Below are positions 1-62,425 of a stretch of DNA of 64,000 nt, in pieces (within the stretch, counting starts at the first letter, position 1; each line of letters begins with the position of its first letter). Under the pieces are notes generated by a model. It saw nothing but the letters and a program-made list of their open reading frames with translations. It was not told the DNA's origin and did not search any database. The position numbers and the translations under genes were made by a program. This DNA is from Planctomycetales bacterium (lineage in GTDB: Bacteria > 4484-113), in the NCBI GenBank assembly GCA_037441675.1, contig JBBIRS010000002.1:172633-236632 (forward strand), written 5' to 3'.

Positions 1-2248
1 CTCCCAACTCTTCAGATGTTTTACTAGCTACTTCACTGAAACCTGAAATTAACATATCAATAAATGCCCTTGCTAATTGGCGTACAAGCGGAGGTAAATC
101 TAAATGTGAAGTTAACGAGAGATTTCTATCAGAGAGAGTAAAAGGAACGAAACCATTGCTCAGAAGTCTCTCAATTGCTCTCGTGATAGCACTTCGCCAA
201 TCTAATATAAGAAGATAATCCTTCTCAAATATCCTATAAGGAAGCGGTTCGCATTTGTCAGCTTGAGATGCGCACATCTCAAGTTCAATCGCTGGTTGAG
301 CTTCATAACTTGCTTGATTGCAGATTCCCAGAATTGCGGAAAAGGCATCAAAAAGCCTACCTAGAGAAGTGGAAGGGACTAATCCGACACCGTCACGTAT
401 CATCTTCAGTACTACTCTTCCTCCTTCCACATTCTTTGGGCTAAGATAACTAAGAGCATCCTCTGCCAAAGAAGGCTCAGTAGAATAAATTGCGGATAAT
501 CCCAGCCTCCAAGGCTCGTGTATACTTGCCTCTCCACCGGGAAGATTGAGAGTGTAAATAGTTGCAACACGTTCGAACGAATTTAAGTCACCCACCAAGA
601 CCTCCGCACCCCAGATTGTTCCGTCATCGCCATAACCTGTTCCGTCAAATGAAAGAGCTATCACTTGTCCATTAATATGGTTCTCAATGTAGGCAGAGGC
701 AAGATGCGAATGATGATGTTGAGCCTCTATGAATTTTGCATCATTTTTCTTGGCAAAAACTCTTGCAAGCTTCTTTGAATAATACAAAGGATGCTTGTCC
801 GCAACTACTACTTCCGGTTTCTGGCGGAAAAGCTTTTGGTAGTGCTCAAGTGTTCTTCTATGAAAAGCTTGAGCAAAAATATTTTCCATATCTCCAAGAT
901 GAGGACTAATGACAGCGAACCTTCCAATAGATAAGCAGAAGGTTGACTTCAAGTCCGCCCCAAAACCTAATATAGATTGGGCAAGACATTCTTCATCCTC
1001 CCTTGTTGCAAGCGCTACGGGATAGGGGGCATAACCTCTACCAATCCGCAAAGTTCTGGGAACTCCCATTATGAATCTCACAATGGAATCATCGCTCGGC
1101 GCAACTATTCTCCTATTATGCATTAGGAAATAGTCTGCGATACCTGCGAGCCTTAAGAGCGCTTCCTCATTTTCAAAGGCTAAAGGTTCTTCGGAAAGAT
1201 TTCCACTCGTCATAACTAAAACCTGAAGAGTCCTATCCTCACCATCAGCCAAGGGGGTGTTGAACAAAAGAAGATGCAAGGGTGAATAAGGAACCATAAC
1301 ACCAAAAAGACTAGTTCTCGGCGCAACCAGAGGAGAAATCTTCTCACTAATTACGGTGTCTTTCTTTTCTAAAAGGACTATCGGGCTTATTGGGCTAGCA
1401 AGAAGAGCCATCTCATCTGAGTTAATTTTTACAAGCTGACTCAGAAGGGCAATGTCCTTTACCACTATTGCTAAAGGCTTAAAGCGCGCTCTTCTCTTTC
1501 TCTCTCGTAACCTCTCAACCACAGAATTATTAAATGCGTCACAGGCAAGATGAAATCCGCCAATGCCTTTAATCGCTAGAATTGCGCCATCGGCTAGAAG
1601 CCTTACCGCCTTTTCAAGCGCATCCTCTCTTTCCGCTATGATTTCTCCATTGGTATTTGTTAGGAACACCTGAGGTCCACATACATGGCAGGCGTTTGGC
1701 TGGGCGTGATACCTTCTATTTGCCGAGTCCTCATATTCCGCTCGGCACTCTTCACACATTAAAAAGTCCTTCATAGTGGTATTCGGTCGGTCATAGGGAA
1801 GAGCTTCTATGATTGAATAACGAGGTCCACAGTTGGTACAGTTAATAAATGGATAGCGATATCTGCGGTCATTCCTGTCAAGAAGTTCCTTTGCGCAATC
1901 ATTACAAATGGCTGTATCTGGCGAGACTAAAGTGACTTCTCCTTCAGCTTCTTCGCTCTCTTTGATATGAAAACCCAAAAGACCCACAGGCGGAAGAATT
2001 TCCTTGAAGGAACTTGTTATTCGGGAGATGGGAGGAGCTTCGCTATGGACTCTTTCAAAAAAATTAAGACAAGCTTCCATCTCTCCCTCAACTTCACAAA
2101 GGACACCCGTAGTTGAATTTAGGACCCAGCCCGAAAGCTTCTCTTCCCTAGCAATGCGAGCAAGCGTTGGACGGAAACCAACACCTTGCACAATACCGGT
2201 GAAGTAGCACCTTAGGCGAACAACATCTGTATGAGCCTTATCAGTCAA
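1..2248 (-). CDS. hypF: [NiFe]-hydrogenase maturation carbamoyltransferase HypF. The 3' end runs off the window; the start is a probable TTG at 2246-2248.
   Basis: A minus-strand translation is continuous for about 750 aa. It shows the acylphosphatase motif (RLRCYFTGIVQGVGFRP), two CxxC-x18-CxxC zinc fingers (CNDCAKEL...CTNCGPRYS and CEECRAEY...CHVCGP), a YrdC/Sua5 motif (AIKGIGGFHLACDA) and a Kae1-like C-terminal domain. It is absent from the ORF track because no stop lies inside the window. Confidence 0.85.
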   Translation of the reverse strand, partial: MTDKAHTDVVRLRCYFTGIVQGVGFRPTLARIAREEKLSGWVLNSTTGVLCEVEGEMEACLNFFERVHSEAPPISRITSSFKEILPPVGLLGFHIKESEEAEGEVTLVSPDTAICNDCAKELLDRNDRRYRYPFINCTNCGPRYSIIEALPYDRPNTTMKDFLMCEECRAEYEDSANRRYHAQPNACHVCGPQVFLTNTNGEIIAEREDALEKAVRLLADGAILAIKGIGGFHLACDAFNNSVVERLRERKRRARFKPLAIVVKDIALLSQLVKINSDEMALLASPISPIVLLEKKDTVISEKISPLVAPRTSLFGVMVPYSPLHLLLFNTPLADGEDRTLQVLVMTSGNLSEEPLAFENEEALLRLAGIADYFLMHNRRIVAPSDDSIVRFIMGVPRTLRIGRGYAPYPVALATREDEECLAQSILGFGADLKSTFCLSIGRFAVISPHLGDMENIFAQAFHRRTLEHYQKLFRQKPEVVVADKHPLYYSKKLARVFAKKNDAKFIEAQHHHSHLASAYIENHINGQVIALSFDGTGYGDDGTIWGAEVLVGDLNSFERVATIYTLNLPGGEASIHEPWRLGLSAIYSTEPSLAEDALSYLSPKNVEGGRVVLKMIRDGVGLVPSTSLGRLFDAFSAILGICNQASYEAQPAIELEMCASQADKCEPLPYRIFEKDYLLILDWRSAITRAIERLLSNGFVPFTLSDRNLSLTSHLDLPPLVRQLARAFIDMLISGFSEVASKTSEELG

Positions 2249-2305
2249 CAGGAAAGATTATACCTTGCCAGAGATCATTCTTGACAGCCAACGCCGTCTA
2301 TGATA

Positions 2306-2347
2306 TATTGACTGACTGGCCAGTCAATGACTGAACAGTCAGTCAGA
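2306..2347. promoter_or_regulatory. Inverted-repeat operator-like site in the hypF / TetR-RND divergent intergenic region (TTGACTGACTGGCCAGTCAATGACTGAACAGTCAGTCAG)
   Basis: Near-perfect palindromic half-sites (TTGACTG / CAGTCAA and ACTGACTG / CAGTCAGT) sit about 50 bp upstream of the TetR-family gene, which is typical for an autoregulated TetR operator. Confidence 0.45.
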
Positions 2348-2396
2348 TACAATAAGCTTTTTTATAAGTTTATCCAAAACGTTTATTGAGACTAAT

Positions 2397-3050
2397 ATGT
2401 CGCTGAAAGAAAAAATTTCAGCTATGCCTGAAAAGGCGAGAGAAATACTTACCGCAGCATTACCCATCTTTGCGGATAAAGGATACTATCAGACTACGAT
2501 ATACGATATCGCACACCGCGCCGGTATCGCTAAGGGAACCATTTACTTATACTTCTCAAACAAAGAAGACCTTTATCTAAACCTTCTACTCTTTGTCTCG
2601 CATCAAATTAACGAGGGTATCAGGAAAAAGATTCAAAGTGTCGAAGACACTTGGGAAAAACTGAATATCGCTATGGATATTCACTTCTCCAACCTTATCA
2701 GGTTCAAGTCACACTATTTAGTAACAGATTCAACATTAGCAAAGCCATTTAGGGAGGCGGAAGCTTTTCGCCTTGCCAAGATAGAGCATATAAAAATCTA
2801 CGAAGAAATACTTGAACAGCATTTTAGAAAACTCGGCTTAGGTGCCCCATTCTCTTTGCGAACCGCAGCGCTCATAATTACTGGTGGTCTTACCAGTTAT
2901 GCTCGCTTTCACTTCCTGAAAGATTATGCACCTAGCCCGGCTGAGTACCTTCAGGTATTCAAACAAATCATCAGAAATGCTCTCGTAATGAAGCCATCAA
3001 GAATGAATTCTCCTACCACTTTAAAGCCGAAAAGGGGGAAAAATGAATAA
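2397..3050 (+). CDS. TetR/AcrR family transcriptional regulator
   Basis: N-terminal TetR helix-turn-helix (AREILTAALPIFADKGYYQTTIYDIAHRAGIAKGTIYLYFSNKEDLY). It is about 217 aa and lies directly upstream of the RND efflux genes, overlapping the next gene by 8 nt. Confidence 0.85.
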   Translation: MSLKEKISAMPEKAREILTAALPIFADKGYYQTTIYDIAHRAGIAKGTIYLYFSNKEDLYLNLLLFVSHQINEGIRKKIQSVEDTWEKLNIAMDIHFSNLIRFKSHYLVTDSTLAKPFREAEAFRLAKIEHIKIYEEILEQHFRKLGLGAPFSLRTAALIITGGLTSYARFHFLKDYAPSPAEYLQVFKQIIRNALVMKPSRMNSPTTLKPKRGKNE

Positions 3051-4650
3051 GGTTTTTATTAAAAACGCACTTTACCTTCTGCCTATTTTTTATTCCTTCT
3101 TCTTAAGTGGAAATATGAGCAAGATTGCTTATTCTGAAGATACTTTGACTAAAGCGGGAGAGGTAAAAACCTCACTTTCCACCGAAGCTAGCGATACGCA
3201 CAACGAAGTGACCGATCTGGGCAAGAAGGAGGAACCAGGCGCAGAGGACGTAAATGAGGCGCAATCCAGCATTACTCCCACGGATTCTCATACAACCAAG
3301 AATGCGGTCAGAATAACAATTGAGGAGCTCATTGATATTGCGCTAGCGAATAACTACGACCTTAGAATTAAACAGAAGGAGGCTGAAACCGCTTTCTACG
3401 AATACCTGAAGATAAAGGGTGAGGCAGGACTGAGTCTTGATTTTACAAGCTCAATCACACGAAGTGGACCTCTGGTGAAATTTAAGTTTGATGCCGCTGG
3501 GTCTGAAACAACTTTTCAGAAAGAGGTGATTAGCAGGTCATCACTTCGCTTGTCCTATCCACTCACACCTCTCGGCAATCTAAGTTTAGGTGAAAAAGCA
3601 GCAGAGGCAAACTACCTGGCAAGGCAAGGACTTGTAGACAAGGAAGTTGCAAGCGCAATCACCGAAACCTATCAAGGCTACAAGAGCTATCTCATTGCCG
3701 AACAGGGAGTCGCACTAGCGGAGGAAGCCCTAGTTCTTGCGGAGGAACAGCTTAAAAACGCCACATTGCGCTTTGAGGAAGGCATATCTCCTCGTTTTGA
3801 GGTAATTCAAGGTGAAGTTGCGGTTTCAGAAGCCAAGGAAAATCTCATAAGTGCCTACAACACACTTGCGCTTGCCAGAAGCTCGCTCTTTCTAACGGTC
3901 GGTATAGATCCCTCAAATTACTTCAATGGAGCGGATGTTGAAATTACTTACGATGCCTGGGTTGATTCGCTAGTTAAACAAGTTTCAGAAGTAGTTTTAC
4001 CTCGGCTTGATGTTCAGGCGTTAACGAATTACTTCCTTGAAAGTACTCCCGATTTTCGCTTTCTCAAGAGCAACATACTTTCGCTTGAGGCTCAACTGGG
4101 CGCAAGAAAGCGATCGCCTATTCTCAATCTAACCGCAAGCTATACACATCAAAGTGGGTCAAGCTTCCAGAAGAGCAACACTTGGGAATACGGGCTAAGC
4201 GGAACTTTTAATCTTTTTGATTCAGGCAAGACTGAGAATTGGTTAAGAGCAATCAAAGCCCAGAAGGAGCAATTTGAGCTATCTCTTGAGCGTTACAAAC
4301 AAGCCTTTGAATTAAGTATTACGGACAAGAAAAGCCAATTGGAGAGCGCGGTTTACGGTTGGCAAACTGCTAAGAATACCCTCTCCCAAGCGGAGGAGGC
4401 TCTTCGGATGTCTAGAATAGGATATGAAGAGGGAGTTGTTACCCACGCTGACTTAGTCTCATCACGCACCGCATACCTCTCCGCAAAGCTAAGAGAGTTC
4501 TCACAAAGGCTTGAGATTCTCTCAGCTTATCATTCGCTGCTAAGAGAAATTGGTATGACGGATGCAAGCTTATACCTGCCAAAGGATGTATCTGACTTTT
4601 ATTGGATTCCAAGACCGATTGAGGAGGGACAGAGTGAGCAGAACAGCTAA
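3043..4650 (+). CDS. Outer membrane efflux protein (TolC-like outer membrane factor)
   Basis: 535 aa with an N-terminal signal or hydrophobic segment. Two TolC-like helical/coiled repeat halves; it is the first gene of the MFP-RND operon and has a GGGGG RBS. Confidence 0.7.
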   Translation: MNKVFIKNALYLLPIFYSFFLSGNMSKIAYSEDTLTKAGEVKTSLSTEASDTHNEVTDLGKKEEPGAEDVNEAQSSITPTDSHTTKNAVRITIEELIDIALANNYDLRIKQKEAETAFYEYLKIKGEAGLSLDFTSSITRSGPLVKFKFDAAGSETTFQKEVISRSSLRLSYPLTPLGNLSLGEKAAEANYLARQGLVDKEVASAITETYQGYKSYLIAEQGVALAEEALVLAEEQLKNATLRFEEGISPRFEVIQGEVAVSEAKENLISAYNTLALARSSLFLTVGIDPSNYFNGADVEITYDAWVDSLVKQVSEVVLPRLDVQALTNYFLESTPDFRFLKSNILSLEAQLGARKRSPILNLTASYTHQSGSSFQKSNTWEYGLSGTFNLFDSGKTENWLRAIKAQKEQFELSLERYKQAFELSITDKKSQLESAVYGWQTAKNTLSQAEEALRMSRIGYEEGVVTHADLVSSRTAYLSAKLREFSQRLEILSAYHSLLREIGMTDASLYLPKDVSDFYWIPRPIEEGQSEQNS

Positions 4651-5932
4651 AACAATCATTCTAACATTCGGAGGTTCACTTGGATTAATAATTCTTTCAG
4701 GGCTCTTCGTTGTCGTGAGAAATTTCCTGAAGCCCGAGGTAGTTAAAGTGCCACCAATATCAGTAGAGACTATCACCTCAGAAGTAAAACCTTTTTATGA
4801 AACCTACGTTTATACAGGAACGATAGTCGCAGACAAGTCAACGGTAATCCCAGCGCAGATTGAGTCCACCGTGAAAAAGATATTAGTTGACGAAGGAGAT
4901 AATGTTAAGGGTGGGCAACTGCTAGTTGTTCTGGATGATGCCCAGTATCGTAATGAAGTCTCAGTCGCCAAGGCTTCGTATGAAATGGCAAAGCAGTCCC
5001 TAGCTTTAGCCCGTTCCGCGCGACCCGAACAGATAGCTCAGGCGGAGGCAAATTATCGCTCCTCAAAAATCTCGGCACAAAATGCACTAAGACACTATGA
5101 GAGAATGAAGGTGCTCTTTAGCGAGGGGGTTATCCCCAAAGCTCAACTGGAATCAGCTGAGTCGCAGTATGAAAATGCTCAATCTCTATTGACATCTGCT
5201 GAAGAGGGCTTGAAGATGGCGAGAACTGGCGCCCGAGCTGAGGAGAAAAAATCATTACAAGCGGCACTTGAACTAGCGTCCGCACAGCTTCAAATTGCGC
5301 AAAGGCACTTGAGCTATACGCGCATCTACGCTCCCTATGACGGAGAGATTTCAAATAAAATGGTTGAAGTAGGCGATTTTGTCGGCAAGGGGCAACAGGT
5401 AATTGAGATAGTATCTTCAAGAAATTTGAAAATTGAGATTTACGTGCCATCAGAAAAGGTGGGGCTACTTGAGATTGGGCAGAGTGCTGAGGTAAGAGTT
5501 GAGAGATTGGATGAACCTTTAGAGGCAACCATAACTAGTATTGTCGAATCCGCTGACCCTCTCACCAGACTCTTCAAGGTCAATTTATCTTTGCCTTACA
5601 GGACAGGGCTCCTGCCAAACGATTTTGCCGAGGTGACGCTTAAGTGGAAATTGGGAGATGGAACGGTTGTGCTTCCTGCTTCGGCAATACTCTCGCCAGG
5701 CACGGAAGAGCCATACATCTTCGTAGTTGAAAATGGGAGGGCAAAGCGCGTAAACGTAACTCTAGGTTTGAGAAACGGCGAGTGGGCACAAATTCTTCAG
5801 CCTCTTAAGGGCGGGGAAGAAGTAGTCGTATCTGGACAAAACTTCCTTACGGATGGTTCCCTAGTCAATGTAAACACTACTTCAAACATTGAGACGGAAC
5901 TTGAAAAAGGATCTCTCAGGAATACGGAGTAA
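4634..5932 (+). CDS. Efflux RND transporter periplasmic adaptor (HlyD/AcrA-type membrane fusion protein)
   Basis: Single N-terminal TM, coiled-coil hairpin, then biotinyl-lipoyl-like and beta-barrel domains. A GTG start at 4634 with a GGAGGG RBS is preferred over the ORF-track start at 4562, which overlaps the OMF gene. Confidence 0.8.
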   Translation: MSRTAKTIILTFGGSLGLIILSGLFVVVRNFLKPEVVKVPPISVETITSEVKPFYETYVYTGTIVADKSTVIPAQIESTVKKILVDEGDNVKGGQLLVVLDDAQYRNEVSVAKASYEMAKQSLALARSARPEQIAQAEANYRSSKISAQNALRHYERMKVLFSEGVIPKAQLESAESQYENAQSLLTSAEEGLKMARTGARAEEKKSLQAALELASAQLQIAQRHLSYTRIYAPYDGEISNKMVEVGDFVGKGQQVIEIVSSRNLKIEIYVPSEKVGLLEIGQSAEVRVERLDEPLEATITSIVESADPLTRLFKVNLSLPYRTGLLPNDFAEVTLKWKLGDGTVVLPASAILSPGTEEPYIFVVENGRAKRVNVTLGLRNGEWAQILQPLKGGEEVVVSGQNFLTDGSLVNVNTTSNIETELEKGSLRNTE

Positions 5933-5936
5933 CTTT

Positions 5937-8900
5937 ATGAACATCGCTCAACTTTCTATTAGAAGACCGGTATTTGTCGTAATGTTGATGCTATTTATGG
6001 TCGTCTTCGGACTTGTCTCCTATCGGCGATTGGGAATGAATATGTTTCCGAAGGTCGTCTTCCCCTTTATTACGGTTACAACTCTCTATCCTGGTGCAAG
6101 CCCAGACGTTGTTGAGTCACAAGTCACTAAGATACTTGAGGACAGCATTGCGATTACAGAAGGAATAGACAGAATGTCATCCTACTCCATGGAAGGCGTG
6201 AGCTTGGTGTTTGTCGAATTCGAATCCGACAAGGACATTGATGCTGCGGCTCAAGATGTTCGGGATAGAGTCAGCCAAGTATTAGATGACCTGCCGGACG
6301 ATGCTGAGGAGCCTGTAGTTGCGAAGTTTGACGTGAATGCAATGCCTATCCTTTACTTCACCGTATCATCCGAAACGATGGGGCAGAGGGAGCTACGAGA
6401 CTTTGTTGATAAACGTATCAAGAATGTAATTCAGCAGGCGCCCGGAGTTGCAGAGGTTACTACCTCGGGAGGGCTTGAGAGAGAGATACAGGTGATTCTC
6501 TCGCCATCAAAATTGGAAGCGTTCGGCATGAGCCCCGCAGTAATTGGTCAAATGCTTGCTCTTAGCAACGTAGACTTCCCAACAGGTTCTGTGAAAGAAG
6601 GAGGACTGGAGTACATTCTGCGTGTTCCTAATGTGTTTACGAGTGTTGCTGATATTTCCGAGACTGCTGTCGCGTCAGTATACGGTAAGACAGTAAGGCT
6701 TAGGGATATTGCAACTGTAATAGATTCTCAAAAGGAGAGAAAAACAGATGCACGCCTTAACTCTAACAGCGCTATCCTCCTATCAGTTATTAAGCGAGGG
6801 GACGCGGACTTAGTTTCCACAACCAACAGCGTGAAGTCGCGCGTCGCGGAAATAACAAGGGAATTGCCAGCGGGGATAAGTATAAACCTTGTCATTGATT
6901 ACTCAAAGTACGTTGTTGCATCCTTAGAAGATATAAATGTGAGTATTGTTCTCGGAGCTATCCTTGCAAGCTTGGTCGTTTGGCTCTTTGTAGGAAAGAT
7001 GCGCTTTACCATTCCAATAACTGTATCAATTCTTGTCGCGGTCATCGCGGATTACGCCGCTGTAAACTTCGCAGGTTTCACGCTCAACTTTATGAGTATG
7101 CTGGCGTTAGCGGTGGCGGTTGGCCTCATTGTGGACGATTCAATCGTTGTTCAAGAGAACATCTTAAAGGAGTTTGAATTAACCAACAATGCGGAAGAGG
7201 CAACTATTAAGGGAAGCTCTCAGGTGATGTTAGCGGTCATCGCTTCTACATCAACTATTATCGCTGTTTTTCTGCCGATTGCCTTTATGAGTGGGATCAT
7301 CGGACAGTTCTTTAAGGAGTTTGGTATCACGATTTCCTTTGCTATTGGCATATCCACCATAGTAGCGCTAACCCTTATTCCACTTGCCTTTTACCAGGTT
7401 AGTACTCGCCCCTCTATTGGAAAGAGAAGACCACTATGGGTAAAACCCATTGACTTTCTTTCAAGGGCTTTTGATGGTATTCACAAATCTTTTGTAAGAG
7501 GTTACTTAAACGTAGAAGAATTCTATACCAATATATTGAGAAGCGCATTGAAAAATCGCGCTAAAGTGGTGGCAGGCGGAGTGCTCTTCTTTCTTCTTTC
7601 TATTCCTCTTTTCATCATATCGGAAGTAAGGTTTACGCCAGAGATGGACCGGGGACGTTTTCAGGTTTTCATAGAGCTCCCGGTGGAAGCACCACTAGAA
7701 AGAACTGACGAAATCGTGAGGCAGGTTGAACGTATCGTTGCTTCACTTCCAGAGGTTGACAAAGTGCTCTCAGTCATAGGCATGAGCTTCGGAGGGTTTA
7801 TGGGCGGAAGGGAGCAGGGAAACATCGCTCAAGTTTTCGGCGTGCTTAAGGATAAAAGAGACCGTAAATTTCATTTGCGATGGTGGGGGATTGTCCCAGT
7901 TCTTTTCAAGTACACCGATATGGACATTGTGGAAAAGGCGAGAGAGAAGATTAGGAGTATACCTGGTGCGAAAATTTCTGTAAGTACTGAACAGATGGGT
8001 GGTAGAGCGCATCCAGTTGAGCTAGTATTTTCTGACCCGGATTATCAAAGACTCAGGCGTGTCACCAAGAAGGCACAGGAGATACTTTCCAGCATTAAAG
8101 GAGCAATAAACGTTGATAACACCGAACGACCTGGCAAGCTTCAACTAACCATCAAACCTAAAATTGAGAGAATGATTCAGTTAGGCATTACACCAGCGGA
8201 ATTAGGTCAGTACTTGCGCATTTTGTATGAGGGAATAAGTTTTAGCAAGTACAGAGAGGGTGGAGAGGAGTATGATATTACACTCTTATATCCTGAAAAC
8301 GAAAGAAGAAACCTACAATCGGTTAGGTCTATCAAAATCATTTCACCACGCCTGAATCAACCTATCTCTCTAGAAACAATCGCGGACATAAATCTCTCTC
8401 AAGGTCCTTCTCTAATCCAACACTCTGACAGGGTGCGGTCAATTAACGTTTACGCAGATGTCGCTAAAGGCGTAGGAACTGGAACCGTTCTTGCAAAGTG
8501 GAAAGCTGAGATGAAAGAGCAAGGCGTCATCCCCTCAACAACCAAAGTGACCCCTATTGGAGAATCGGACTTGATACAAGAGATGTTTGAACAGTTTTTA
8601 CTAGCGTTAATTCTTGGAGTAATCTTTAGTTATATGGTCTTGGCAAGTCAATTTAACTCTTACAAGCATCCATTAGTCATAATGATGAGCGTGCCACTTG
8701 CCACAACAGGCTCTCTCCTTTTCATCGTATCTCTTGGAAAGAGCTTTAATTTAATGAGTTTCCTTGGCATTGTGATGCTTACCGGGCTAGTAACTAAAAA
8801 CTCCATACTACTTATTGATTTTGCCAATCAGGCGAGGGTTATGGGACAAAGCATTGAGGATGCGCTTGTGTCCGCTGGCAGACGAAGAATGCGACCTATC

Positions 8901-9128
8901 CTAATGACTAGCTTTACCACCATCTTTGCTCTTCTACCCGTGGCGTTTGGGCTTGGTGAGGGCGCAGACTTCCGAAGCCCGCTTGCGGTCGCTGTGATAG
9001 GCGGAATGGTTTTCTCTACTTTATTAACACTCATTATCATCCCAGTCGTTTATGTGATTGTTGAAAACTTTAGCCTTGCTAGAATAAGAATACCTAAAAG
9101 TATAAATTCAAGCCACGCAGAAGTGTAG
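5937..9128 (+). CDS. Efflux RND transporter permease subunit (AcrB/HAE1 family)
   Basis: About 1064 aa with the 12-TM RND topology and two large periplasmic loops. The N-terminus (MNIAQLSIRRPVFVVMLMLFMVVFG) is typical of AcrB. The ATG at 5937 is preferred. Confidence 0.9.
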   Translation: MNIAQLSIRRPVFVVMLMLFMVVFGLVSYRRLGMNMFPKVVFPFITVTTLYPGASPDVVESQVTKILEDSIAITEGIDRMSSYSMEGVSLVFVEFESDKDIDAAAQDVRDRVSQVLDDLPDDAEEPVVAKFDVNAMPILYFTVSSETMGQRELRDFVDKRIKNVIQQAPGVAEVTTSGGLEREIQVILSPSKLEAFGMSPAVIGQMLALSNVDFPTGSVKEGGLEYILRVPNVFTSVADISETAVASVYGKTVRLRDIATVIDSQKERKTDARLNSNSAILLSVIKRGDADLVSTTNSVKSRVAEITRELPAGISINLVIDYSKYVVASLEDINVSIVLGAILASLVVWLFVGKMRFTIPITVSILVAVIADYAAVNFAGFTLNFMSMLALAVAVGLIVDDSIVVQENILKEFELTNNAEEATIKGSSQVMLAVIASTSTIIAVFLPIAFMSGIIGQFFKEFGITISFAIGISTIVALTLIPLAFYQVSTRPSIGKRRPLWVKPIDFLSRAFDGIHKSFVRGYLNVEEFYTNILRSALKNRAKVVAGGVLFFLLSIPLFIISEVRFTPEMDRGRFQVFIELPVEAPLERTDEIVRQVERIVASLPEVDKVLSVIGMSFGGFMGGREQGNIAQVFGVLKDKRDRKFHLRWWGIVPVLFKYTDMDIVEKAREKIRSIPGAKISVSTEQMGGRAHPVELVFSDPDYQRLRRVTKKAQEILSSIKGAINVDNTERPGKLQLTIKPKIERMIQLGITPAELGQYLRILYEGISFSKYREGGEEYDITLLYPENERRNLQSVRSIKIISPRLNQPISLETIADINLSQGPSLIQHSDRVRSINVYADVAKGVGTGTVLAKWKAEMKEQGVIPSTTKVTPIGESDLIQEMFEQFLLALILGVIFSYMVLASQFNSYKHPLVIMMSVPLATTGSLLFIVSLGKSFNLMSFLGIVMLTGLVTKNSILLIDFANQARVMGQSIEDALVSAGRRRMRPILMTSFTTIFALLPVAFGLGEGADFRSPLAVAVIGGMVFSTLLTLIIIPVVYVIVENFSLARIRIPKSINSSHAEV

Positions 9129-9162
9129 AATAGGAATAGCTATTAGCGTTAAACCTCTTTCA

Positions 9163-10845
9163 ATGAATGAACTTCTAAAGCTTTATAGGGATATCGCGGA
9201 TTCAAGAATTCTGCAAGACGTTCCTTCTCACCTTTTTTTTAGAGAGCTTAAGATAGCTGAACTCACTCTGAACCTAGCATCCGCACTTGGATTTTCCGCT
9301 ACAAGCCTTAAGCGGATTAGAGACCTGATACCTTTTGTCCCGCTGCTTTTTCTGCCTGAAATGCAATTGGGAAGAAAACTGGGAAGCGCTGTCAAGGAAA
9401 GAGTGTTTGATATGCGACTTGGGAAGAACATTGTTAAGGAGAAGGAGCGAAAATGTTGGGAGGAAATTCTTAATCTTTGCGAGAGCATATATTCCACGAA
9501 GGAGGAACTTCTTCTGCCTTATCCAAGCGTGCAGGTGTTAATAGAGCAGAATTCGGTGAAATTGATAATCCCTGAGGAGGAAATAGCTATTCCTAGCCTG
9601 AAGCCTCCGCTGGCAGAAAGGATAACCGTCCTAAGTACCGGGAAATACTTGGAGAGGTTTACTCCTGACAAGCGCTATCTTCTTCTTTCCCATCACGACC
9701 CTCACGGCTTTGGGATGATGATTTCCACTTATCTTACTCTCAAATCACTTGGGGTGACCGACGTTTCTTTTCTTACGGGCTATCAAGAAACTGGAGATTA
9801 CGGTAAGTTCTGGAAACGAACATTTCCTAGGCTAGTTAGTGAGGGGAAATATGCTGAAATAGTTCTACTAGATTTGACTGTATATGCCCCGCATCCAGAA
9901 CGAACACTTAACGCACTTTCCATCGCGGTAAGAAACGGAGTGGGTGTCACGCTTATTGACCATCATCAGGATACCTCTATTTGTGCCCGAGCTCTTTCTC
10001 AAACGGGAGCAAACGTTGTTCTTACGGATATCCCGAGTTGCTTTCTTGGTGGAAGGATTACGGAAAAGAACCTTCCCTACGTGTTGCTTGGAGCACTTGG
10101 GGACAAAGACGTGACCATTCGCCATCCCTTGGCGTGGAACAAAACTCTCCCGGATATATGCATTGAAACAACTCAAGTCCTGGAAAAATTATCAGATATT
10201 ATGCTGACATTATCACCACCCCCAAAGGAATTCAGGAAGCTCAACCTATTCCCGGCTGAAGAGTTGGTCTCAAAGGCAGAACTTGGCTTTTTGGCATTTT
10301 CTAAAGCCATTGAAGAAATTGTTTCTTGGGGAATCCCCGTTTATAAGAAAGACGTGTGCAGTTTTGATCCCAAAGTTCAAATCCAGGATAATGTTTTTTA
10401 CTCTGCGCATTTAGAAAGCTACCTAATTGGTAAAGTTCTAATCGTCAATCAAGCGCTAAGGACAACTGGAAGGAGATGGTACGACATACTAGAAAACGAA
10501 CTTTTCAAGAATGAAACAGCTCTTTACGCCATTTCTGGTCGCTATTTAACTGGTTTGGGATTTAACTTCCTTTGCGTAAAGAAATGGTCCGTGCTTATCG
10601 CGCCTCCGCCAATTTGCTTTCTTACCCAGAGGTTGCGAAAAGGAGGAAAAGGAGTTATAGGCCATCATAATGCCTTTTGGATAACAGTAAGTGAAGAGCA
10701 CGTGATAAGTGAGCTAAAAAAATTCATATCAAACATTAATCGTTACTTCGGATTATCCTCCCGTGGTGTTGTTCAGACTCTCGTTAATCTGATTAGAAGA
10801 CTTTTGAATGATAAAAAGGCTAGAGACGCAGATTTAGACACTTAA
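9163..10845 (+). CDS. Hypothetical protein with a degenerate DHH/DHHA1 phosphoesterase-like core
   Basis: 560 aa. Motifs resembling DHH-family signatures (LLSHHDPHGFG, VTLIDHHQD, GKGVIGHH), with a roughly 170-aa N-terminal extension of unknown function. Confidence 0.4.
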   Translation: MNELLKLYRDIADSRILQDVPSHLFFRELKIAELTLNLASALGFSATSLKRIRDLIPFVPLLFLPEMQLGRKLGSAVKERVFDMRLGKNIVKEKERKCWEEILNLCESIYSTKEELLLPYPSVQVLIEQNSVKLIIPEEEIAIPSLKPPLAERITVLSTGKYLERFTPDKRYLLLSHHDPHGFGMMISTYLTLKSLGVTDVSFLTGYQETGDYGKFWKRTFPRLVSEGKYAEIVLLDLTVYAPHPERTLNALSIAVRNGVGVTLIDHHQDTSICARALSQTGANVVLTDIPSCFLGGRITEKNLPYVLLGALGDKDVTIRHPLAWNKTLPDICIETTQVLEKLSDIMLTLSPPPKEFRKLNLFPAEELVSKAELGFLAFSKAIEEIVSWGIPVYKKDVCSFDPKVQIQDNVFYSAHLESYLIGKVLIVNQALRTTGRRWYDILENELFKNETALYAISGRYLTGLGFNFLCVKKWSVLIAPPPICFLTQRLRKGGKGVIGHHNAFWITVSEEHVISELKKFISNINRYFGLSSRGVVQTLVNLIRRLLNDKKARDADLDT

Positions 10846-10992
10846 ATCATATAAATCTTCAACCAGATAAATCTAAGAACATCCAAGCAAAGAAGAGTCA
10901 AGCAGATAAACTTTGTATTGAACAGCTTTAAGATTGCCTTAATCTATACTGATATACATTCAATACATTCAAAATAATTTGGAGGTTCAAAG

Positions 10993-12378
10993 ATGAAGCT
11001 AGCAATTGAAACAATCCAAGGAAGTGTCATCTACCCATTCTTGGCATCTTTAGTTCTCTTTGGCGTCGCAAGTTTCGCATCTGCAAGAGAGATAGGAACG
11101 GTCAAGGACGTATCCCTAACCGTTTACAATCAAGACCTGGCGCTTGTTCGTGAGATTCGCGGGTTTGATTTTACTCAGGGATTGAATTTCTTAACGCTTA
11201 CTGGCGTTGCCAGCAGGATTGACCCCACAAGCGTCCATTTCAAGCTACTTTCAGATTACACATTCTCCCTTCTGGAGCAGAATTATGACTATGACCTCGT
11301 TGGAACAAATAAGCTTTTGCAGAAGTACATAGGAAAACGCATCGCACTTGTTGACCCGAAAGATGGCACGCGTAAAGATGTGACGCTACTTTCAGTTTCG
11401 GATGGAATAGTCGTTGACTATGCGGGGAAGATTCTTATCAATCCGCCTGGAAATATTGAGCTTCCTGAACTTACTGAAGGCTTACTTCTAAAGCCAACGC
11501 TGGAATGGCAGGTTCTTACCGAGAAAGCATTCTCTTCAGATGGCGAGCTTTCCTATCTCACGAGCGGTCTCTCGTGGATCGCAGATTACGTAGCTCTTCT
11601 TGAGGATGACGAGAAAACCGCTGAAATGGAGGGTTGGGTTACGCTCACGAATAACTCTGGCGCTACTTACGAGAATGCCAAGCTCAAGCTAATCGCTGGA
11701 GATATTCACCGAGCGCCAGCTCCAAGAGCAGTGGAAATGGCTCAGCTCCGCAAAACTATGGCGGAGGCGGATATGGGTTTCAAGGAGGAGGCTTTCTTTG
11801 AGTATCACCTTTACAACCTTCAGCGCAGAACTACCATCAAGAACGCTCAGACGAAGCAGGTATCGCTACTCACTGCTAGCGGAATACCGATAAACAAAAT
11901 TTACACTTACGACCCTGCCTGGCGAAGCGAGAAGATTGAAGTGCGAGTTGAATTCAAGAACAGCGAAGGCAATCATCTAGGAATGCCACTACCCGCGGGA
12001 CGAGTGCGGGTTTTTAAGCGCGATAGCGAAGGCATACCTCAACTCGTAGGCGAGGATTCCATTGACCACACTCCGAAGGATGAGATGGTGCGCCTCCTTC
12101 TTGGGTATGCCTTTGACGTGAAGGGTGAGAAGAAACAGGTTAGTTACACCGACAAACAGAAGGGTTATACCGCAAGTTATGAAGTCTCCCTACGAAATCA
12201 CAAGAAGGAAGCGGTTACGATACTAGTGTTGGAGCATCTGCCATATGCAAACTGGAAGGTGGTTGAGGCAAGCCACGATTATAAAAAGCTTGATGCGCGG
12301 ACGATTGAATTTACAGTTAAGGTACCCGCGGATGGTGAGGTGAAACTTAGCTATACAATTGACGCTTGGTGGGAGTAA
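10993..12378 (+). CDS. Secreted DUF4139/DUF4140-type (MuiA-like) protein
   Basis: 461 aa with an N-terminal signal peptide and a GGAGG RBS. Overall length and composition fit the DUF4140-DUF4139 family; the assignment is tentative. Confidence 0.4.
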   Translation: MKLAIETIQGSVIYPFLASLVLFGVASFASAREIGTVKDVSLTVYNQDLALVREIRGFDFTQGLNFLTLTGVASRIDPTSVHFKLLSDYTFSLLEQNYDYDLVGTNKLLQKYIGKRIALVDPKDGTRKDVTLLSVSDGIVVDYAGKILINPPGNIELPELTEGLLLKPTLEWQVLTEKAFSSDGELSYLTSGLSWIADYVALLEDDEKTAEMEGWVTLTNNSGATYENAKLKLIAGDIHRAPAPRAVEMAQLRKTMAEADMGFKEEAFFEYHLYNLQRRTTIKNAQTKQVSLLTASGIPINKIYTYDPAWRSEKIEVRVEFKNSEGNHLGMPLPAGRVRVFKRDSEGIPQLVGEDSIDHTPKDEMVRLLLGYAFDVKGEKKQVSYTDKQKGYTASYEVSLRNHKKEAVTILVLEHLPYANWKVVEASHDYKKLDARTIEFTVKVPADGEVKLSYTIDAWWE

Positions 12379-12460
12379 TCTTTCGGTGCAGTCGGTGCAT
12401 ATCATTCTGAAGGCATCACACTGAAGAGGTGCTTGCTTGCAATTGCGAGATTTCCTAAAA

Positions 12461-12560
12461 TTCTGGAACACGCCCGTCTCGGGCGTGTCCTCACCCACCC
12501 TGTAGGGCGGGGACGCACCCTGCCGAATACGGCGTCATATGAGTTGATGCCCTAGAGAGA
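12461..12560. repeat. Copy A of a dispersed GC-rich short repeat (hairpin CACGCCCGTCTCGGGCGTG plus core CCCTGTAGGGCGGGG...GCCGAATACGGCGTCATATGAGTTGATGCCC)
   Basis: The same motifs recur at about 25.2, 30.6-30.8, 44.3 and 62.2-62.4 kb, always intergenic and more GC-rich than the surrounding sequence. Confidence 0.45.
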
Positions 12561-12660
12561 AATTCTGTCGCAATTCAGAATGGTGCCCCGCGGTGGCGGG
12601 CAAGCCACTAGATGACAATTCTTCCGCCCGTGTAGATTTGCCTGTCCCAAAAAACAAAAA

Positions 12661-12779
<119 letters not shown>

Positions 12780-14615: not shown

Positions 14616-17240
14616 ATGTTTAATTGGAATCATACGTTCAAATTATTGATAATTTCTCTCTTTCTTCTAATAATAATTTCCTGTAGTAGCAAAGATGCTT
14701 CTTTTGAGCATAAGATAAGTGGTGAGGCGAAAGGCATTGCCAATGAAGTATCTTTATCTCAGATACTTAACGAAATTGAGCAGGAGCACGTGCCACCAAA
14801 TGTTGATGCAGGAATCGTAGGTGACTTGAAGAGGGAACTAATCAAGGAGCTAACAGTTCTAGGCAAGAACAGGTTCGTTCTTAAGCCGGTGGACAACCCT
14901 AAGAGCGCTGTTTCAGATTTAAGGCTATTCATTGAGCTTGATGGTAGAGCACACTTTGAATGGACTTACGCGAATCTGGGCGACTACAACCAGGACGGCG
15001 CAGTTGATATCAGAGATGTCTCGCCTCTTGCGTCTCACTTTAGGGAAAAAGTATCGGACAGCCCAACACCAGAGCTGACCGCCTGGATTGATGGTGATGA
15101 TAATGGCGAGGTAAATATTTCCGACGTTGGGATAATTGCTAAGAACTTTTTTGCAGAAGTATCATCTTACGTTCTTGAAGGAAGCGAGTTTGAAGATAGA
15201 GGTTTCCAGCCCATTGAAGGTTTAGAAATTTCTCTAAACGATGCTACGGTTGAACCCGGGGCTGTTAAGCGGTTTAGTTTGGAAGTCCCGTCTCTGGACT
15301 TTGGCTATTATCGCGTTGTGCCGCAGGATAGCCTGGGAAGAGATGGACTTCCAAGTAATGTAGTCCCATCTATCGCTGAAGCTCCTCTTATTGAAAGTGT
15401 ATCACCATTAGGCGGATTGACTGGAGAACTTGTCACATTTTCCGCTGTGGTCACCGGGACAGAACCAATCATTTATAATTGGGATTTTGGAGGAGGGGCG
15501 GAGCCGAATACTTCTGAGGAAGCCAATCCAACTGTTACCTTGAGCGCGCCCGGCACTTATGATACCGCACAACTAACTGTGAGAAACATTGCTGGTGAAG
15601 ACACATTTAATTTTACAATTATCGTCGGTGATTTGGGCGGGCCACCCGTCATCCAACAAATTATCGTTCCAAGTGGACAAGTTGGTGACTCGGTTCAATT
15701 TAGCGCAGTAGTTGCTTCCGACCCGCCGATTATTTCCTACACTTGGACATTTAGTGGCGGAGTTGATGTAACTTCCTCCTCTGAAGCTTCTCCCACGGTG
15801 ACATTCACTGAGGCAGGCAATTTTTCTGGAAATCTACTCGTTGACAACGGTAAAGGTACAGACACTAGGGATTTTAACTTCACGGTTAATGAATCGCCTC
15901 CACCACCTTCTGGACCGGATGTGGTTTCAGTTTCGCCATTGCAAGGATTTGAGCTTACCAAGTTGCTGTTTACCGCGGAGGTCACTTCCAGTGGAACCCT
16001 TACTTACGATTGGGATTTTGGTGACCTAGGATACCCGCAAAATTCAACTGAGCCATCCCCAACCGTATTACTAGGTACATCGGGACCCCACCAATGCAGT
16101 TTAACGGTTACCGATGAGTACGGTAGCGATTCTCTTGACTTTACTGTAACTGTTGATCGTGCTAACTGGACGATAGTTAATATCGCTAGAGGAGGACCGT
16201 ACCTTGACTTGGAAATCGTTAATGGCAGACCAGCGGTAGCTTTTCAACTACTTGAAGGTGGTATGTCAGATCAAAAATCATACGCCGCCTATGCCATTAG
16301 CTCAACGCCTGATGGAACTGGCACATGGACAATGGGAAAGATAGACACACAAAATATTTCTGGTTCATACATTTCACTAGCGGTTGCAGATAGTAGACCT
16401 GCGGTTTCCTATCAAGCGTCCACGGAAACATTTTCAGGTTTAAGATACGCTATTAGTCCAACTAGCGATGGACTGGGCGGAAGCTGGACAATAAGCACGG
16501 TTGTTTCTGGTTCATCCGTTGGATATTACAATTCCTTAGCGGTTGTAGATGGCAGACCTCGCATCGGCTATTACGACATGTCGAATACGCTGATTATGTT
16601 TGCAAGTAACGATCAAGTTGATGGACTTGGAACTTGGTCATTCTTCACAATCCAGGACACCTCAGGCGCGGATATATGCTTAGCGGAGATATCCGGCAGA
16701 CCCGCTATGACCTATCTTCGTAGGACATCTCCCCCAATTAGGAACCTGCTTCAATACGCGATAGCAGATAGTTCGGTAGGTGATAGATGGTCTTTGAGAA
16801 GAACCATTGACAACGGAGGTGGAGTTAATGATGTTGGCGCTACATCTTTTCTCACCACTATTTTTGATAAACCCGCGGTTAGCTACTTTGACATGACTAA
16901 TAGAGACCTGCTATTTGCAATTTCCGATGATAGAGTAGGCTCAGGAACATGGAGTATCTCCACTGTTCACAGCCAAGGAGATGTAGGTGGAAACTCCTCG
17001 TTAGCATCTGTAAACGGTTATCCAATGATTAGCTATACCAATATTAGTGGGAACAACTCTTTATGGCTAGCTATGTGCTCTGAACCTGATGGAAGTGGTG
17101 GATGGGCATATGCCCCCGTGGATACCCGACAAGATTCTGCTGGTGGAAATACAGTGATAGTTGATATAGGTGGCAGGCCGGGTATCGCATACAGCCCCAC
17201 CGGCGACGGACAGGTTAGATTCGCTTTAAGGGATTATTGA
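14616..17240 (+). CDS. Surface lipoprotein: dockerin-like Ca-loop module + Fn3-like domain + 4 PKD domains + C-terminal ~45-aa beta-propeller-like tandem repeats
   Basis: Lipobox (LLIIISCSS). Dockerin type-I-like duplicated loop (DYNQDGAVDIRDV...DGDDNGEVNISDV). Four PKD units (YNWDFGGGAEPNTSEE...; YTWTFSGG...; YDWDFGDLG...). At least seven repeats of the form TWxxxxIxxxGxxGxYxSLAVxDGRPxIxY. Confidence 0.7.
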   Translation: MFNWNHTFKLLIISLFLLIIISCSSKDASFEHKISGEAKGIANEVSLSQILNEIEQEHVPPNVDAGIVGDLKRELIKELTVLGKNRFVLKPVDNPKSAVSDLRLFIELDGRAHFEWTYANLGDYNQDGAVDIRDVSPLASHFREKVSDSPTPELTAWIDGDDNGEVNISDVGIIAKNFFAEVSSYVLEGSEFEDRGFQPIEGLEISLNDATVEPGAVKRFSLEVPSLDFGYYRVVPQDSLGRDGLPSNVVPSIAEAPLIESVSPLGGLTGELVTFSAVVTGTEPIIYNWDFGGGAEPNTSEEANPTVTLSAPGTYDTAQLTVRNIAGEDTFNFTIIVGDLGGPPVIQQIIVPSGQVGDSVQFSAVVASDPPIISYTWTFSGGVDVTSSSEASPTVTFTEAGNFSGNLLVDNGKGTDTRDFNFTVNESPPPPSGPDVVSVSPLQGFELTKLLFTAEVTSSGTLTYDWDFGDLGYPQNSTEPSPTVLLGTSGPHQCSLTVTDEYGSDSLDFTVTVDRANWTIVNIARGGPYLDLEIVNGRPAVAFQLLEGGMSDQKSYAAYAISSTPDGTGTWTMGKIDTQNISGSYISLAVADSRPAVSYQASTETFSGLRYAISPTSDGLGGSWTISTVVSGSSVGYYNSLAVVDGRPRIGYYDMSNTLIMFASNDQVDGLGTWSFFTIQDTSGADICLAEISGRPAMTYLRRTSPPIRNLLQYAIADSSVGDRWSLRRTIDNGGGVNDVGATSFLTTIFDKPAVSYFDMTNRDLLFAISDDRVGSGTWSISTVHSQGDVGGNSSLASVNGYPMISYTNISGNNSLWLAMCSEPDGSGGWAYAPVDTRQDSAGGNTVIVDIGGRPGIAYSPTGDGQVRFALRDY

Positions 17241-23038: not shown

Positions 23039-23111
23039 GAGCCATTAGCTCAGTAGGTAGAGCACCGGACTTTTAATCCGGGGGTCCCGGGTTCGATTCC
23101 CGGATGGCTCA
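23039..23111 (+). tRNA. tRNA-Lys (anticodon UUU)
   Basis: Cloverleaf: acceptor GAGCCAT/ATGGCTC, D-arm AGCTCAGTAGGTAGAGC, anticodon stem-loop CCGGA-CUUUUAA-UCCGG, T-arm GGGTTCGATTCCC. No encoded CCA. Confidence 0.85.
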
Positions 23112-23117
23112 AGGTTA

Positions 23118-23190
23118 GCCCCCATCGTCTAGTGGACTAGGACACCACTCTTTCAAGGTGGAAACGCGGGTTCAATTCCCGCTGGGGGTA
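23118..23190 (+). tRNA. tRNA-Glu (anticodon UUC)
   Basis: Reads GCCCCCATCGTCTAGTGGACTAGGACACCACTCTTTCAAGGTGGAAACGCGGGTTCAATTCCCGCTGGGGGTA and is closely parallel to bacterial tRNA-Glu. Anticodon loop CUUUCAA. Confidence 0.8.
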
Positions 23191-23317
23191 GAACTTCCTT
23201 TCAGGTTTTCTCGCTCAATCGTTGCAAAAAGTCGAAATGCATACATAGCACGCTCTTACGATTCCAAAATAGCTTCGGAAGGGGTATCAAAATCTCAAGG
23301 ATTACGCCAGTTTGAAA

Positions 23318-25187: not shown

Positions 25188-25245
25188 GGAATCTTCACTC
25201 TGGAGGGCGAAGAGCTTGCTTTCGCCCTACAGAGAAATTCGGCGC
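25188..25245. repeat. Copy of the dispersed GC-rich repeat (GGGCGAAGAGCTTGCTTTCGCCCTACAG...AAATTCGGCGC), inverted orientation
   Basis: It shares the GCCCTACAG / CTGTAGGGCG core and the GCCGAATT segment with the copies at 12.5 and 30.7 kb. Confidence 0.35.
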
Positions 25246-29311: not shown

Positions 29312-29422
29312 CCCTAAAAAACTTCTTCTCACCCAACAATTCTTATCCTTTCCGGCTATCATTAACATATTCTCTAAGTTTTCTAATTTTATTCAATTAC
29401 ATAAAGTAATAAGGCAGGATTA

Positions 29423-30596: not shown

Positions 30597-30800
30597 GGAT
30601 TGTAAGTATCAGGGAGAAATCACTCCGCTGGAAAGGTAGTGTAGGGCGACCACCTGTGGGTCGCGGTCGCCTCATTCAGACTGTAGGGCGGGGTTTTATA
30701 CCCCGCCGAATTAGGAGTCATACAAGTTGACGCCCCGCCTATTGCGGGCAAGCTTAAAGGGAATCTCGGCGCGATACAAGTTCGCGCCCTGCAACTCTAC
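30597..30800. repeat. Composite copy B of the dispersed GC-rich repeat (GTAGTGTAGGGCGACCACCTGTGGGTCGCGGTCGCC; CTGTAGGGCGGGGTTTTATACCCCGCCGAATTAGGAGTCATACAAGTTGACGCCCCGCC; CGCGATACAAGTTCGCGCCC)
   Basis: Several hairpin-forming GC-rich units; each matches units in copies A (12.5 kb), C (44.3 kb) and D (62.3 kb). Confidence 0.45.
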
Positions 30801-43875: not shown

Positions 43876-44282
43876 AGTGAAATTCCTTGTGATAAGAGAC
43901 TCTTATTATAAGTTAATATTATAACAAATATTCATTCAATCATCCAATATTTCGCAGAGAATTTAACAGTCATTCGGCTTAGTCTCATATACCGTGAACG
44001 GAAAGCTTAGAAAGCAATAGCGTTATCATAGAAAGCTCGAACTAGATTTTGATTATTTAGACCTTAGTGATCATTAAAGTTGACGCCAACCAAATCCATC
44101 AACTCAGTCGCTAGTCTACTCATAAAAATAAACCTATTTACAAAACACCAAGTGACTGGTTCGACGGGGACTTCTTTTTATGAGGTGTGTGTAATTTACG
44201 AAAAGCTTAAATTATCGTTATTGTGGAAAAGGACATAGGCGAGGACCAGCCCAAAGCTGGCAAGCGTCCGTGATCCAAATAG

Positions 44283-44350
44283 AGGTACTGTGGGGTGCGA
44301 ACTCGTATCGCGCTGAAGCGGCGGGGCGCAAGTCCCCACCCTACAGGGTC
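44283..44350. repeat. Copy C of the dispersed GC-rich repeat (reverse orientation: GACCCTGTAGGGTGGGGACTTGCGCCCCGCCGCTTCAGCGCGATACGAGTTCGCACCCCACAG)
   Basis: It matches the CTGTAGGGCGGGG...CCCCGCC hairpin and the CGCGATACAAGTTCGCGCCC unit of copy B. Confidence 0.4.
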
Positions 44351-44379
44351 AAAACGTCACCACGTAATTCAAATACTAA

Positions 44380-45326: not shown

Positions 45327-45499
45327 TTCATGAATGCCGATGTTGTACTTAATTCCGCTGAACGTAACAATTGTTCTGTGCCCAGTCTTCACAGTTCTCA
45401 TCATCCGAAGGGTTGCGGTGGGAATACCCTGTATCGTTTCAATCTTATCCGAGGTGAAGACACGGTAAAGCTCGCCCTGCTTGTCGTAATACTCCTCCT

Positions 45500-62227: not shown

Positions 62228-62425
62228 TCCCCCATCCACACATTCGACCTGTAGTGTAGAGGGCTTGCCGCCGCCGTAAAGTTATAGACCTGTATGACGG
62301 CGAGCTTGCTCCCGCCATGCTCAGAAGCTGGATCACGGGCGTCTCGCCCGTGTCCTTCCCCGCCTACCCCCTTATTTGGATCACGCCCGTCCTCGGGCGC
62401 GTCCTTTCCCACTGCGAGAACCAGC
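62228..62425. repeat. Copy D of the dispersed GC-rich repeat, with two tandem hairpin units (TGGATCACGGGCGTCTCGCCCGTGTCCTTCCCC and TGGATCACGCCCGTCCTCGGGCGCGTCCTTTCCC)
   Basis: The units are near-identical to the CACGCCCGTCTCGGGCGTGTCCTCACCC unit of copy A, and the region also contains a GTAGTGTAGAGGGC core. Confidence 0.45.

Follow-up and report, generated by a model that had tools for sequence, protein, structure and literature searches.

Five intergenic clusters of GC-rich hairpins in a planctomycetal genome, very probably GTAG-tagged repetitive extragenic palindromes

Hairpin units at five intergenic sites

The window analyzed in this study, a stretch of 64 kb with a GC content of 45.0%, contained five clusters of short GC-rich hairpins (sites A to E) comprising about 14 units. 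The preliminary description of this DNA had claimed related hairpin units at five intergenic sites, in both orientations and often as composites, and the analysis bears this out: all five sites contained such units, none of the sites overlapped an ORF of at least 100 aa, site D was inverted with respect to sites A and C, and the units were grouped as dimers and trimers. The sites were also as distinct in composition as described, with 59-62% GC versus 40.6% in the remaining intergenic DNA. Regarding the coordinates, all five sites stood, except that site A runs on as far as about 12607, the left limit of site D is at about 44235, and the stretch 62228-62320 of site E holds only decayed fragments.

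Convergent genes face each other with their 3' ends across sites A and E; the neighbors of site C, and probably those of site D, share one strand, and site B separates divergent gene starts. A position at convergent gene ends, which had been suggested as a point to check, is thus found at two of the five sites. On the minus strand beside site D (44376-45370), short ORFs (e.g., 44376-44507, ending ...VSYKVDDRTTVTVGMNFFGG...) resemble a broken or mis-framed gene of the beta-barrel type; given these gene pieces, the plus-strand ORF 44491-44976 may not be a real gene, in which case both neighbors of site D would be on the same strand. Next to site A lies an orphan 5S rRNA gene (12661-12777, minus strand, 118 bits), with no 16S or 23S gene in the window and with a near-consensus sigma-70-like promoter of its own (12814-12785, 11/12). 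A 5S-like stretch was also found about 2.3 kb from the RtcB gene in one relative (L124).

Three main unit types, designated M1, M2, and M3, were distinguished, with stems of 7-11 bp and unit lengths of 26-33 nt. M1 has the form CTGTAGGG[C/T]GGGG-loop-CCC[C/T]GCCG, that is, CT-GTAG-GG[C/T]GGGG-loop(5-7)-CCC[C/T]GCC-G, and occurs at 12500(+), 30681(+), and 44346(-); CTGTAGGG is invariant across these three copies, whereas the loops vary. Variants of M1 are found at 30639 (GT-GTAG-GGCGACC...GGTCGCC) and in the long palindrome at 25198-25234 (minus strand CT-GTAG-GGCGAA...). M2 is a 7-bp hairpin with the loop TAYRAGT and the opposite-strand tags CTAG, GCGG, GCAG, or GTGG; it is the inverted partner of M1, following it at exactly 5 nt in three of three cases, with one solo copy at 30768. 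M3, GGA[A/T]-CACGSSCG-TC(C)T-CGSSCG[T/C]G-TCC, has copies at 12465, 62330, and 62378; a weak remnant lies at 44281(-). Additionally, a weak short hairpin with a GCAAGC tail (M4) is common to sites A and C. The features are as follows, each M1, M2, or M3 unit being a putative repetitive extragenic palindrome (REP).

Site A, 12465..12490, plus strand: M3 unit, tag GGAA, stem CACGCCCG/CGGGCGTG, loop TCT, tail TCC
Site A, 12500..12525, plus strand: M1 unit, CT-GTAG-GGCGGGG-ACGCA-CCCTGCC-G
Site A, 12531..12557, minus strand: M2 unit, stem GGCGTCA/TGATGCC, loop TATGAGT, minus-strand tag CTAG, 5-nt spacer to M1
Site A, 12500-12557: head-head REPIN-like doublet of M1 and M2
Site A, 12587..12607, strand not assigned: M4 hairpin, CCCCGC-GGTG-GCGGG then CAAGC, folding z = -1.1, low confidence, probably a decayed REP
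Site B, 25198..25234, minus strand: single long palindrome, CTCTG-G-AGGGCGAA...TTCGCCCT-A-CAGAG, z = -5.1, minus strand CT-GTAG-GGCGAA-loop-TTCGCCC
Site C, 30639..30671, plus strand: variant unit, GT-GTAG-GGCGACC...GGTCGCC
Site C, 30681..30708, plus strand: M1 unit, CT-GTAG-GGCGGGGT-TTTAT-ACCCCGCC-G
Site C, 30714..30740, minus strand: M2 unit, GGAGTCA-TACAAGT-TGACGCC, tag decayed to GCGG, 5-nt spacer to M1
Site C, 30733..30754, strand not assigned: M4-like hairpin, CCCGC-CTATT-GCGGG then CAAGC, low confidence
Site C, 30768..30794, minus strand: solo M2 unit, GGCGCGA-TACAAGT-TCGCGCC, minus-strand tag GCAG
Site D, 44319..44346, minus strand: M1 unit, CT-GTAG-GGTGGGG-ACTTGCG-CCCCGCC-G
Site D, 44288..44314, plus strand: M2 unit, CT-GTGG-GGTGCGA-ACTCGTA-TCGCGC(T), partner of M1 in the doublet 44288-44346
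Site D, 44235..44281, minus strand: weak M3-like remnant, TTTGGATCACGGACG..., profile E = 0.17, low confidence
Site E, 62330..62355, plus strand: M3 unit, GGAT-CACGGGCG-TCT-CGCCCGTG-TCC, two stem pairs swapped from C-G to G-C relative to site A
Site E, 62378..62404, plus strand: M3 unit, GGAT-CACGCCCG-TCCT-CGGGCGCG-TCC
Site E, 62240..62320, strand not assigned: unfolded decayed fragments of the left half, CTGTAG..GGGCTTGCC, half an M2 loop and two GGCGG(G)CAAGC-like pieces, z = -0.19, missed by the profiles

An unpaired GTAG tag within the string (C/G)TGTAGGG was found for M1, for the site C variant, and for site B (12500, 30639, 30681, 44346(-), and 25232(-)), and CT directly precedes the tag in four of these five copies. 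The M2 and M3 units of the window have no proper GTAG; the M3 tags are GGAA or GGAT, and the M2 tags are those given above. The doublet of M1, a 5-nt spacer, and M2 occurs three times in register, head to head with the tags outside (profile E = 1e-16 to 1e-18), with a length of 58-60 nt, and folding of the whole doublet into a larger hairpin is predicted at sites A and D. Tandem units are present at site C (30639 and 30681) and at site E (62330 and 62378), and site A is a trimer.

The bare 10-mer CTGTAGGGCG was only marginally enriched (six matches at up to one mismatch versus 2.3 expected, with 3 of 100 shuffles reaching six). Unlike the 10-mer, the longer units were absent from all shuffles: the M1 pattern CTGTAGGGYGGGG-N4-8-CCCYGCCG gave three matches in the window and none in 100 shuffles, and the M2 hairpin GYGYSATAYRAGTTSRYRCC gave four and none. 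The three M3 copies align as CACGCCCGTCTCGGGCGTG and two variants. Searches with nhmmer profiles for the M1-M2 doublet and for M3 recovered the named sites and gave no other match in the window at E < 0.1. A coding sequence on the plus strand at 54137-54160, CGCGCTACAAGTTCCGCGCC, within the ORF 54048-55175, resembles the M2 hairpin GGCGCGATACAAGTTCGCGCC, probably by chance.

The strong hairpins that had been claimed for every site were supported by single-strand folding at sites A, B, and C and in the right half of site E (z = -3.8 to -5.8), with z = -2.0 at site D, and failed in the left half of site E, which is decayed. When the window was searched for GC-rich hairpins whose stems have 7 bp or more, the best-paired stems, with up to 11 pairs, fell at the five sites. 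In the M2 stems, two pairs differ between copies in both bases, and 89% of cells are paired, versus 25-57% with a slid partner; two pairs of the M3 stems are swapped from C-G to G-C, with 97% paired. These counts come from three or four window copies with weak controls (the observed score was reached by 13 of 500 shuffles for M2 and 55 of 500 for M3) and are only suggestive.

M1 and M3 cores in other genomes

The preliminary description had not recognized the consensus; it resolves to two widespread GTAG-REP cores, M1 and M3, each with at least 120 loci. A scan for the M1 pattern, with one genome per species, gave at least 120 loci in about ten phyla. The loci listed belong to Armatimonadota, Verrucomicrobiota (Opitutaceae, Kiritimatiellia), Planctomycetota, Bacillota (Oscillospiraceae), and Acidobacteriota, as well as Methylomirabilota, Coatesbacteria, WS1, and Alpha- and Gammaproteobacteria, and among the matches listed several assemblies give several loci each. 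An inverted partner with the tags outside was present within 120 nt in 57 of 135 instances among the matches listed. One armatimonadotal locus (L062, 48% GC) carries two copies identical to the M1 unit of site C (30681-30709), each paired with an inverted GTAG-GGCACGG REP. The exact junction of the M1 tail and M2 seen in the window doublet had no match in the metagenome collection.

The M1 stems also covary across genomes. With the tag and the outer stem fixed by the search pattern and only the inner positions free, the matches listed comprise 53 distinct inner sequences, of which 43 have complementary bases at the first unconstrained pair, with all four Watson-Crick types represented; shuffling gave a mean of 23.7 and a maximum of 36 of 53.

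The M3 core was likewise found at 120 or more loci in the metagenome collection. A GT[A/G][G/C/T] tag precedes 83 of 117 distinct M3 copies among the matches listed, and many of these form inverted doublets. This suggests that M3 is a second class of GTAG-REP, of which the window holds copies with a decayed tag. A tag on the opposite strand of M3 (GTGAG, GGAAG) was considered and dropped, as the tag of the metagenome copies precedes CACG on one and the same strand.

Four M3-core metagenome loci from related organisms (L126, L171, L228, and L238) have the GGAT tag and the TCCTT.CCC tail of the window M3 units, with similar flanks. They were not counted as copies of the family, being in frame within a lipoprotein gene homologous to the window ORF 14616-17240. 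This ORF (plus strand) is one of three paralogous genes for dockerin-like lipoproteins in the window, together with 26174-29368 and 33456-34436 on the minus strand. In the four homologues, the M3-like palindrome CTGGATCACGCCCGTCTCGGGCGTGTCCTTACCCCC, encoding GGKDTPETGVIQ, lies just past the lipobox (e.g., L238 2040-2110), and two of the four have an extra partial duplication of 27 nt. The palindrome could be a REP captured in a coding sequence.

Genes resembling Y1 transposases were identified in 6 of the 120 M1 loci listed (0.80 Mb in total). Two of these ORFs (L079 and L098) were tested, and both pass the NCBIfam model NF047646 'REP-associated tyrosine transposase' (RAYT; 104 and 112 bits, cut-off 80) and Pfam PF01797; the best match of the L098 ORF in the PDB is E. 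coli TnpA-REP (4ER8, E = 1e-10). At four loci (L079, L098, L024, and L099), the RAYT-like ORF has M1-type REPs no more than about 100 nt away, and at L098 they flank the RAYT gene on both sides in inverted orientation. REPs flanking a RAYT gene form the classical REPtron layout (PMC3733652). The only RAYT near an M3-core locus among the matches listed is 4.6 kb away (L201), which gives no direct link between M3 and a RAYT. No RAYT-like ORF was found in the 64-kb window (best tblastn E = 3.5, and profile searches) or, by profile search, in 42 kb from two relatives.

The nearest named relative of the source lineage is 'Planctomycetales bacterium 4484_113', with an RtcB protein 75% identical to that of the window. 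Two relatives, L246 and L247, encode a DUF4139 protein 85% identical to the window protein and are collinear with the window over 989-12378, a block of TetR, OEP, RND-pump, and DUF4139 genes. Collinearity stops at the stop codon of the DUF4139 gene, exactly at the start of cluster A, which places cluster A at a synteny breakpoint. In L247, 21 kb contain one cluster of the M1 family (CTGTAGGGCGGGTATTTATTCCCCGCTGAAATACGGCGCGAT..., 15983-16075), which separates a 182-aa gene from uvrC; it shows the ...GAAATACGGCG... junction of the window at a different locus. In L246, the spacer beside uvrC and the 64% identical orthologue (182/192-aa gene) holds an unrelated GC-rich sequence (12333-12447). Comparison of these two spacers indicates that the family exists in the lineage at different loci in each genome and turns over, and such differences among sequenced relatives are consistent with mobility. 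No clean filled-versus-empty orthologous site was found, the gene order diverging after DUF4139 in both L246 and L247. The RtcB-linked loci of relatives (L121-L125), which are short, contained no REPs.

Origin of the clusters

These results make it very probable that the five sites are clusters of GTAG-tagged REPs with a BIME/REPIN-like organization. The REP/BIME reading had been among those proposed at the outset, and it agrees with the GC-rich hairpins of 26-33 nt that carry a 5' tag of the (CT)GTAG type, lie outside genes in both orientations, and form dimers and trimers; the evidence from other genomes, where the same cores flank RAYT genes, points the same way. Directly observed are the anatomy of hairpin plus tag, the doublets, the extragenic GC islands, the link between core and RAYT across genomes, and the occurrence at another locus in a relative. 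The units are a genuine repeat family of a known kind of element, and no new kind is revealed.

Previous studies have established the definition of GTAG REPs, their dimer types, and their association with RAYTs (PMC3733652), the binding of TnpA-REP to the GTAG tag and the hairpin foot with cleavage at CT (PMC3479197), the determinants of REP recognition (PMC8266576), and the REPIN doublets (PMC3116915). By analogy with E. coli, Stenotrophomonas, and Marinomonas, the single-stranded hairpin and tag would be bound by a REP-associated tyrosine (HUH/Y1) transposase (RAYT/TnpA-REP). Such an enzyme would cleave and rejoin at a nearby CT, and units, above all inverted doublets such as M1-5 nt-M2, might thereby be copied to new intergenic positions, a process that would leave no target-site duplication. 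After insertion, the hairpins would be passively tolerated between genes, and secondary roles as 3'-end or RNA-stabilizing structures or as recombination hot spots may follow. The degenerate tags and imperfect stems make the window copies look old within this genome of 45% GC.

Selection of the hairpins at gene ends, primarily as terminators or 3'-end structures stabilizing RNA rather than as mobile DNA, was also considered and is improbable. The convergent 3' ends at sites A and E and the same-strand neighbors of site C and probably site D would suit this explanation, as would the position of site A after the 3' end of the orphan 5S rRNA gene. Moreover, imperfect stem positions of the site A copies are G-T and would form G-U pairs in plus-strand RNA, and REPs of other genomes have been reported to follow coding regions and are presumed to be transcribed (PMC3733652). 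However, a scan for hairpins followed by T-runs called none of the REP hairpins, none of which is followed by a T-run; within the sites it made one call, a 5-pair hairpin at 44253-44236, which belongs to the weak M3-like remnant at site D, and the terminator-like totals in the window (19 and 18) were at the level of shuffled sequence (21). Termination needs no conserved unpaired tag or 5' arm, and units stacked two to four deep in both orientations, the location of site B between divergent gene starts, and the same cores beside RAYT genes in other phyla all argue against it. The terminator module of the preliminary description therefore does not hold up; a secondary role of the REP hairpins as 3' structures is possible, and a terminator origin of the family is incompatible with these findings.

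A MITE origin had also been raised and is very unlikely; the units would then descend by deletion from an insertion sequence of the DDE type and show terminal inverted repeats along with target-site duplications. The doublets do have inverted ends (CTGTAGGG...CCCCACAG) and a length of 58-60 nt, but these ends are the REP tags themselves; apart from the REP pair, terminal inverted repeats are lacking, and no direct repeats flanking the doublets are visible at sites A, C, and D. The units also occur singly and in tandem, no related insertion sequence is present in the window, and the transposase found beside the same core elsewhere is of the HUH/Y1 class, which makes no target duplications.

Equally implausible are small structured RNAs, likewise raised at the outset as sRNA modules, or cis-regulatory RNA motifs, to which the stable hairpins with some compensatory changes might have pointed: Rfam matched none of the units, whether the gathering threshold was applied or E was relaxed to 1, giving only the 5S rRNA and two tRNAs in the window, no promoter-like site is associated with the units, which are 26-33 nt long and lie in either orientation relative to their neighbors, and relatives show no conservation of position. 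Weak Rfam 'Plastid-ycf2' matches at 23039-23191 on the minus strand, antisense to tRNA-Lys and tRNA-Glu and below the gathering score, are artefacts of tRNA-like structure.

For annotation, the REP reading means that the five sites should be labelled as REP elements and not as sRNAs, terminators, or MITEs. It also extends the GTAG-REPs to an uncultured lineage of roughly 45% GC that has 'Planctomycetales bacterium 4484_113' as its nearest named relative. The interest of the family is modest and stems chiefly from the reuse of the M1 and M3 cores across many phyla, and two REP cores little changed in many phyla beside RAYT genes offer material on the co-evolution of RAYT specificity and REP sequence. 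More speculatively, and rather doubtfully, the M1 core CTGTAGGGCGGGG...CCCCGCCG and the M3 core GT[A/G]G-CACGGGCG-TCT-CGCCCGTG-TCC might represent near-identical REP 'species' across about ten phyla, which in this genome would be orphan, RAYT-less GC islands that have been co-opted. If so, cores shared to the nucleotide across phyla would point either to one RAYT-REP system that spread horizontally again and again or to a very tight constraint from RAYT recognition, and the co-option would be, for example, as the 3' structure of the orphan 5S rRNA gene and as recombination points, cluster A lying just where the collinearity with two relatives breaks off.

Comparison with known repeat systems

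Three other element types were rejected on anatomy. CGTC-REPs are marked by a terminal unpaired CGTC, A/T at the first stem positions, and a CCA-like tail; here, CGTC is seen only where the stem of M3 passes into the loop and not as a terminal tag, and the stems start with C/G. CRISPR and attC readings were likewise ruled out.

The closest resemblance is to the GTAG-REP super-family (Di Nocera, De Gregorio & Rocco 2013, PMC3733652), which includes families of Opitutus terrae and Rhodopirellula baltica. The shared traits are palindromes 20-40 bp in length, built on stems of 6-13 bp and bearing at one end an unpaired GTAG, which may be degenerate (GTRG, GYAG, GTGG); subfamilies set apart by complementary changes in the stem; grouping into clusters and into dimers of the head-head, tail-tail, and head-tail types; a position outside genes, for the most part where neighbors converge or share a strand; and an association with RAYTs (PMC3733652). 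Unlike the described families, the host here is uncultured with a GC content of roughly 45%, and the tags of M2 and M3 are more degenerate. The consensus strings of M1, M2, and M3 matched none of the 24 published GTAG-REP families as given in text and supplements, the basis of this comparison.

As in the REPs and BIMEs of E. coli, a 5' GTAG stands at the hairpin foot and is preceded by CT, the cleavage site in E. coli (PMC3479197, PMC8266576), and REP types alternate in clusters with opposite orientation. The RAYT beside M1-type REPs in other genomes also resembles E. coli TnpA-REP (4ER8). Unlike the bulged, imperfect stems of E. coli REPs and the BIME spacers with IHF sites, the stems described here are short, almost perfect, and comparable to those of the 'perfect palindrome' group 2, and the 64-kb window differs from the E. 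coli REP/TnpA-REP system in that no RAYT was found within it.

Finally, the doublets differ from the REPINs of Pseudomonas (Bertels & Rainey 2011, PMC3116915) in that their two arms are of different sequence types rather than near-identical copies and the spacer is only 5 nt. Nevertheless, as in the REPIN-RAYT system, inverted REPs with a short spacer form a larger hairpin and recur as a unit, namely M1-5 nt-M2 three times in the window and with the same junction in the relative L247.
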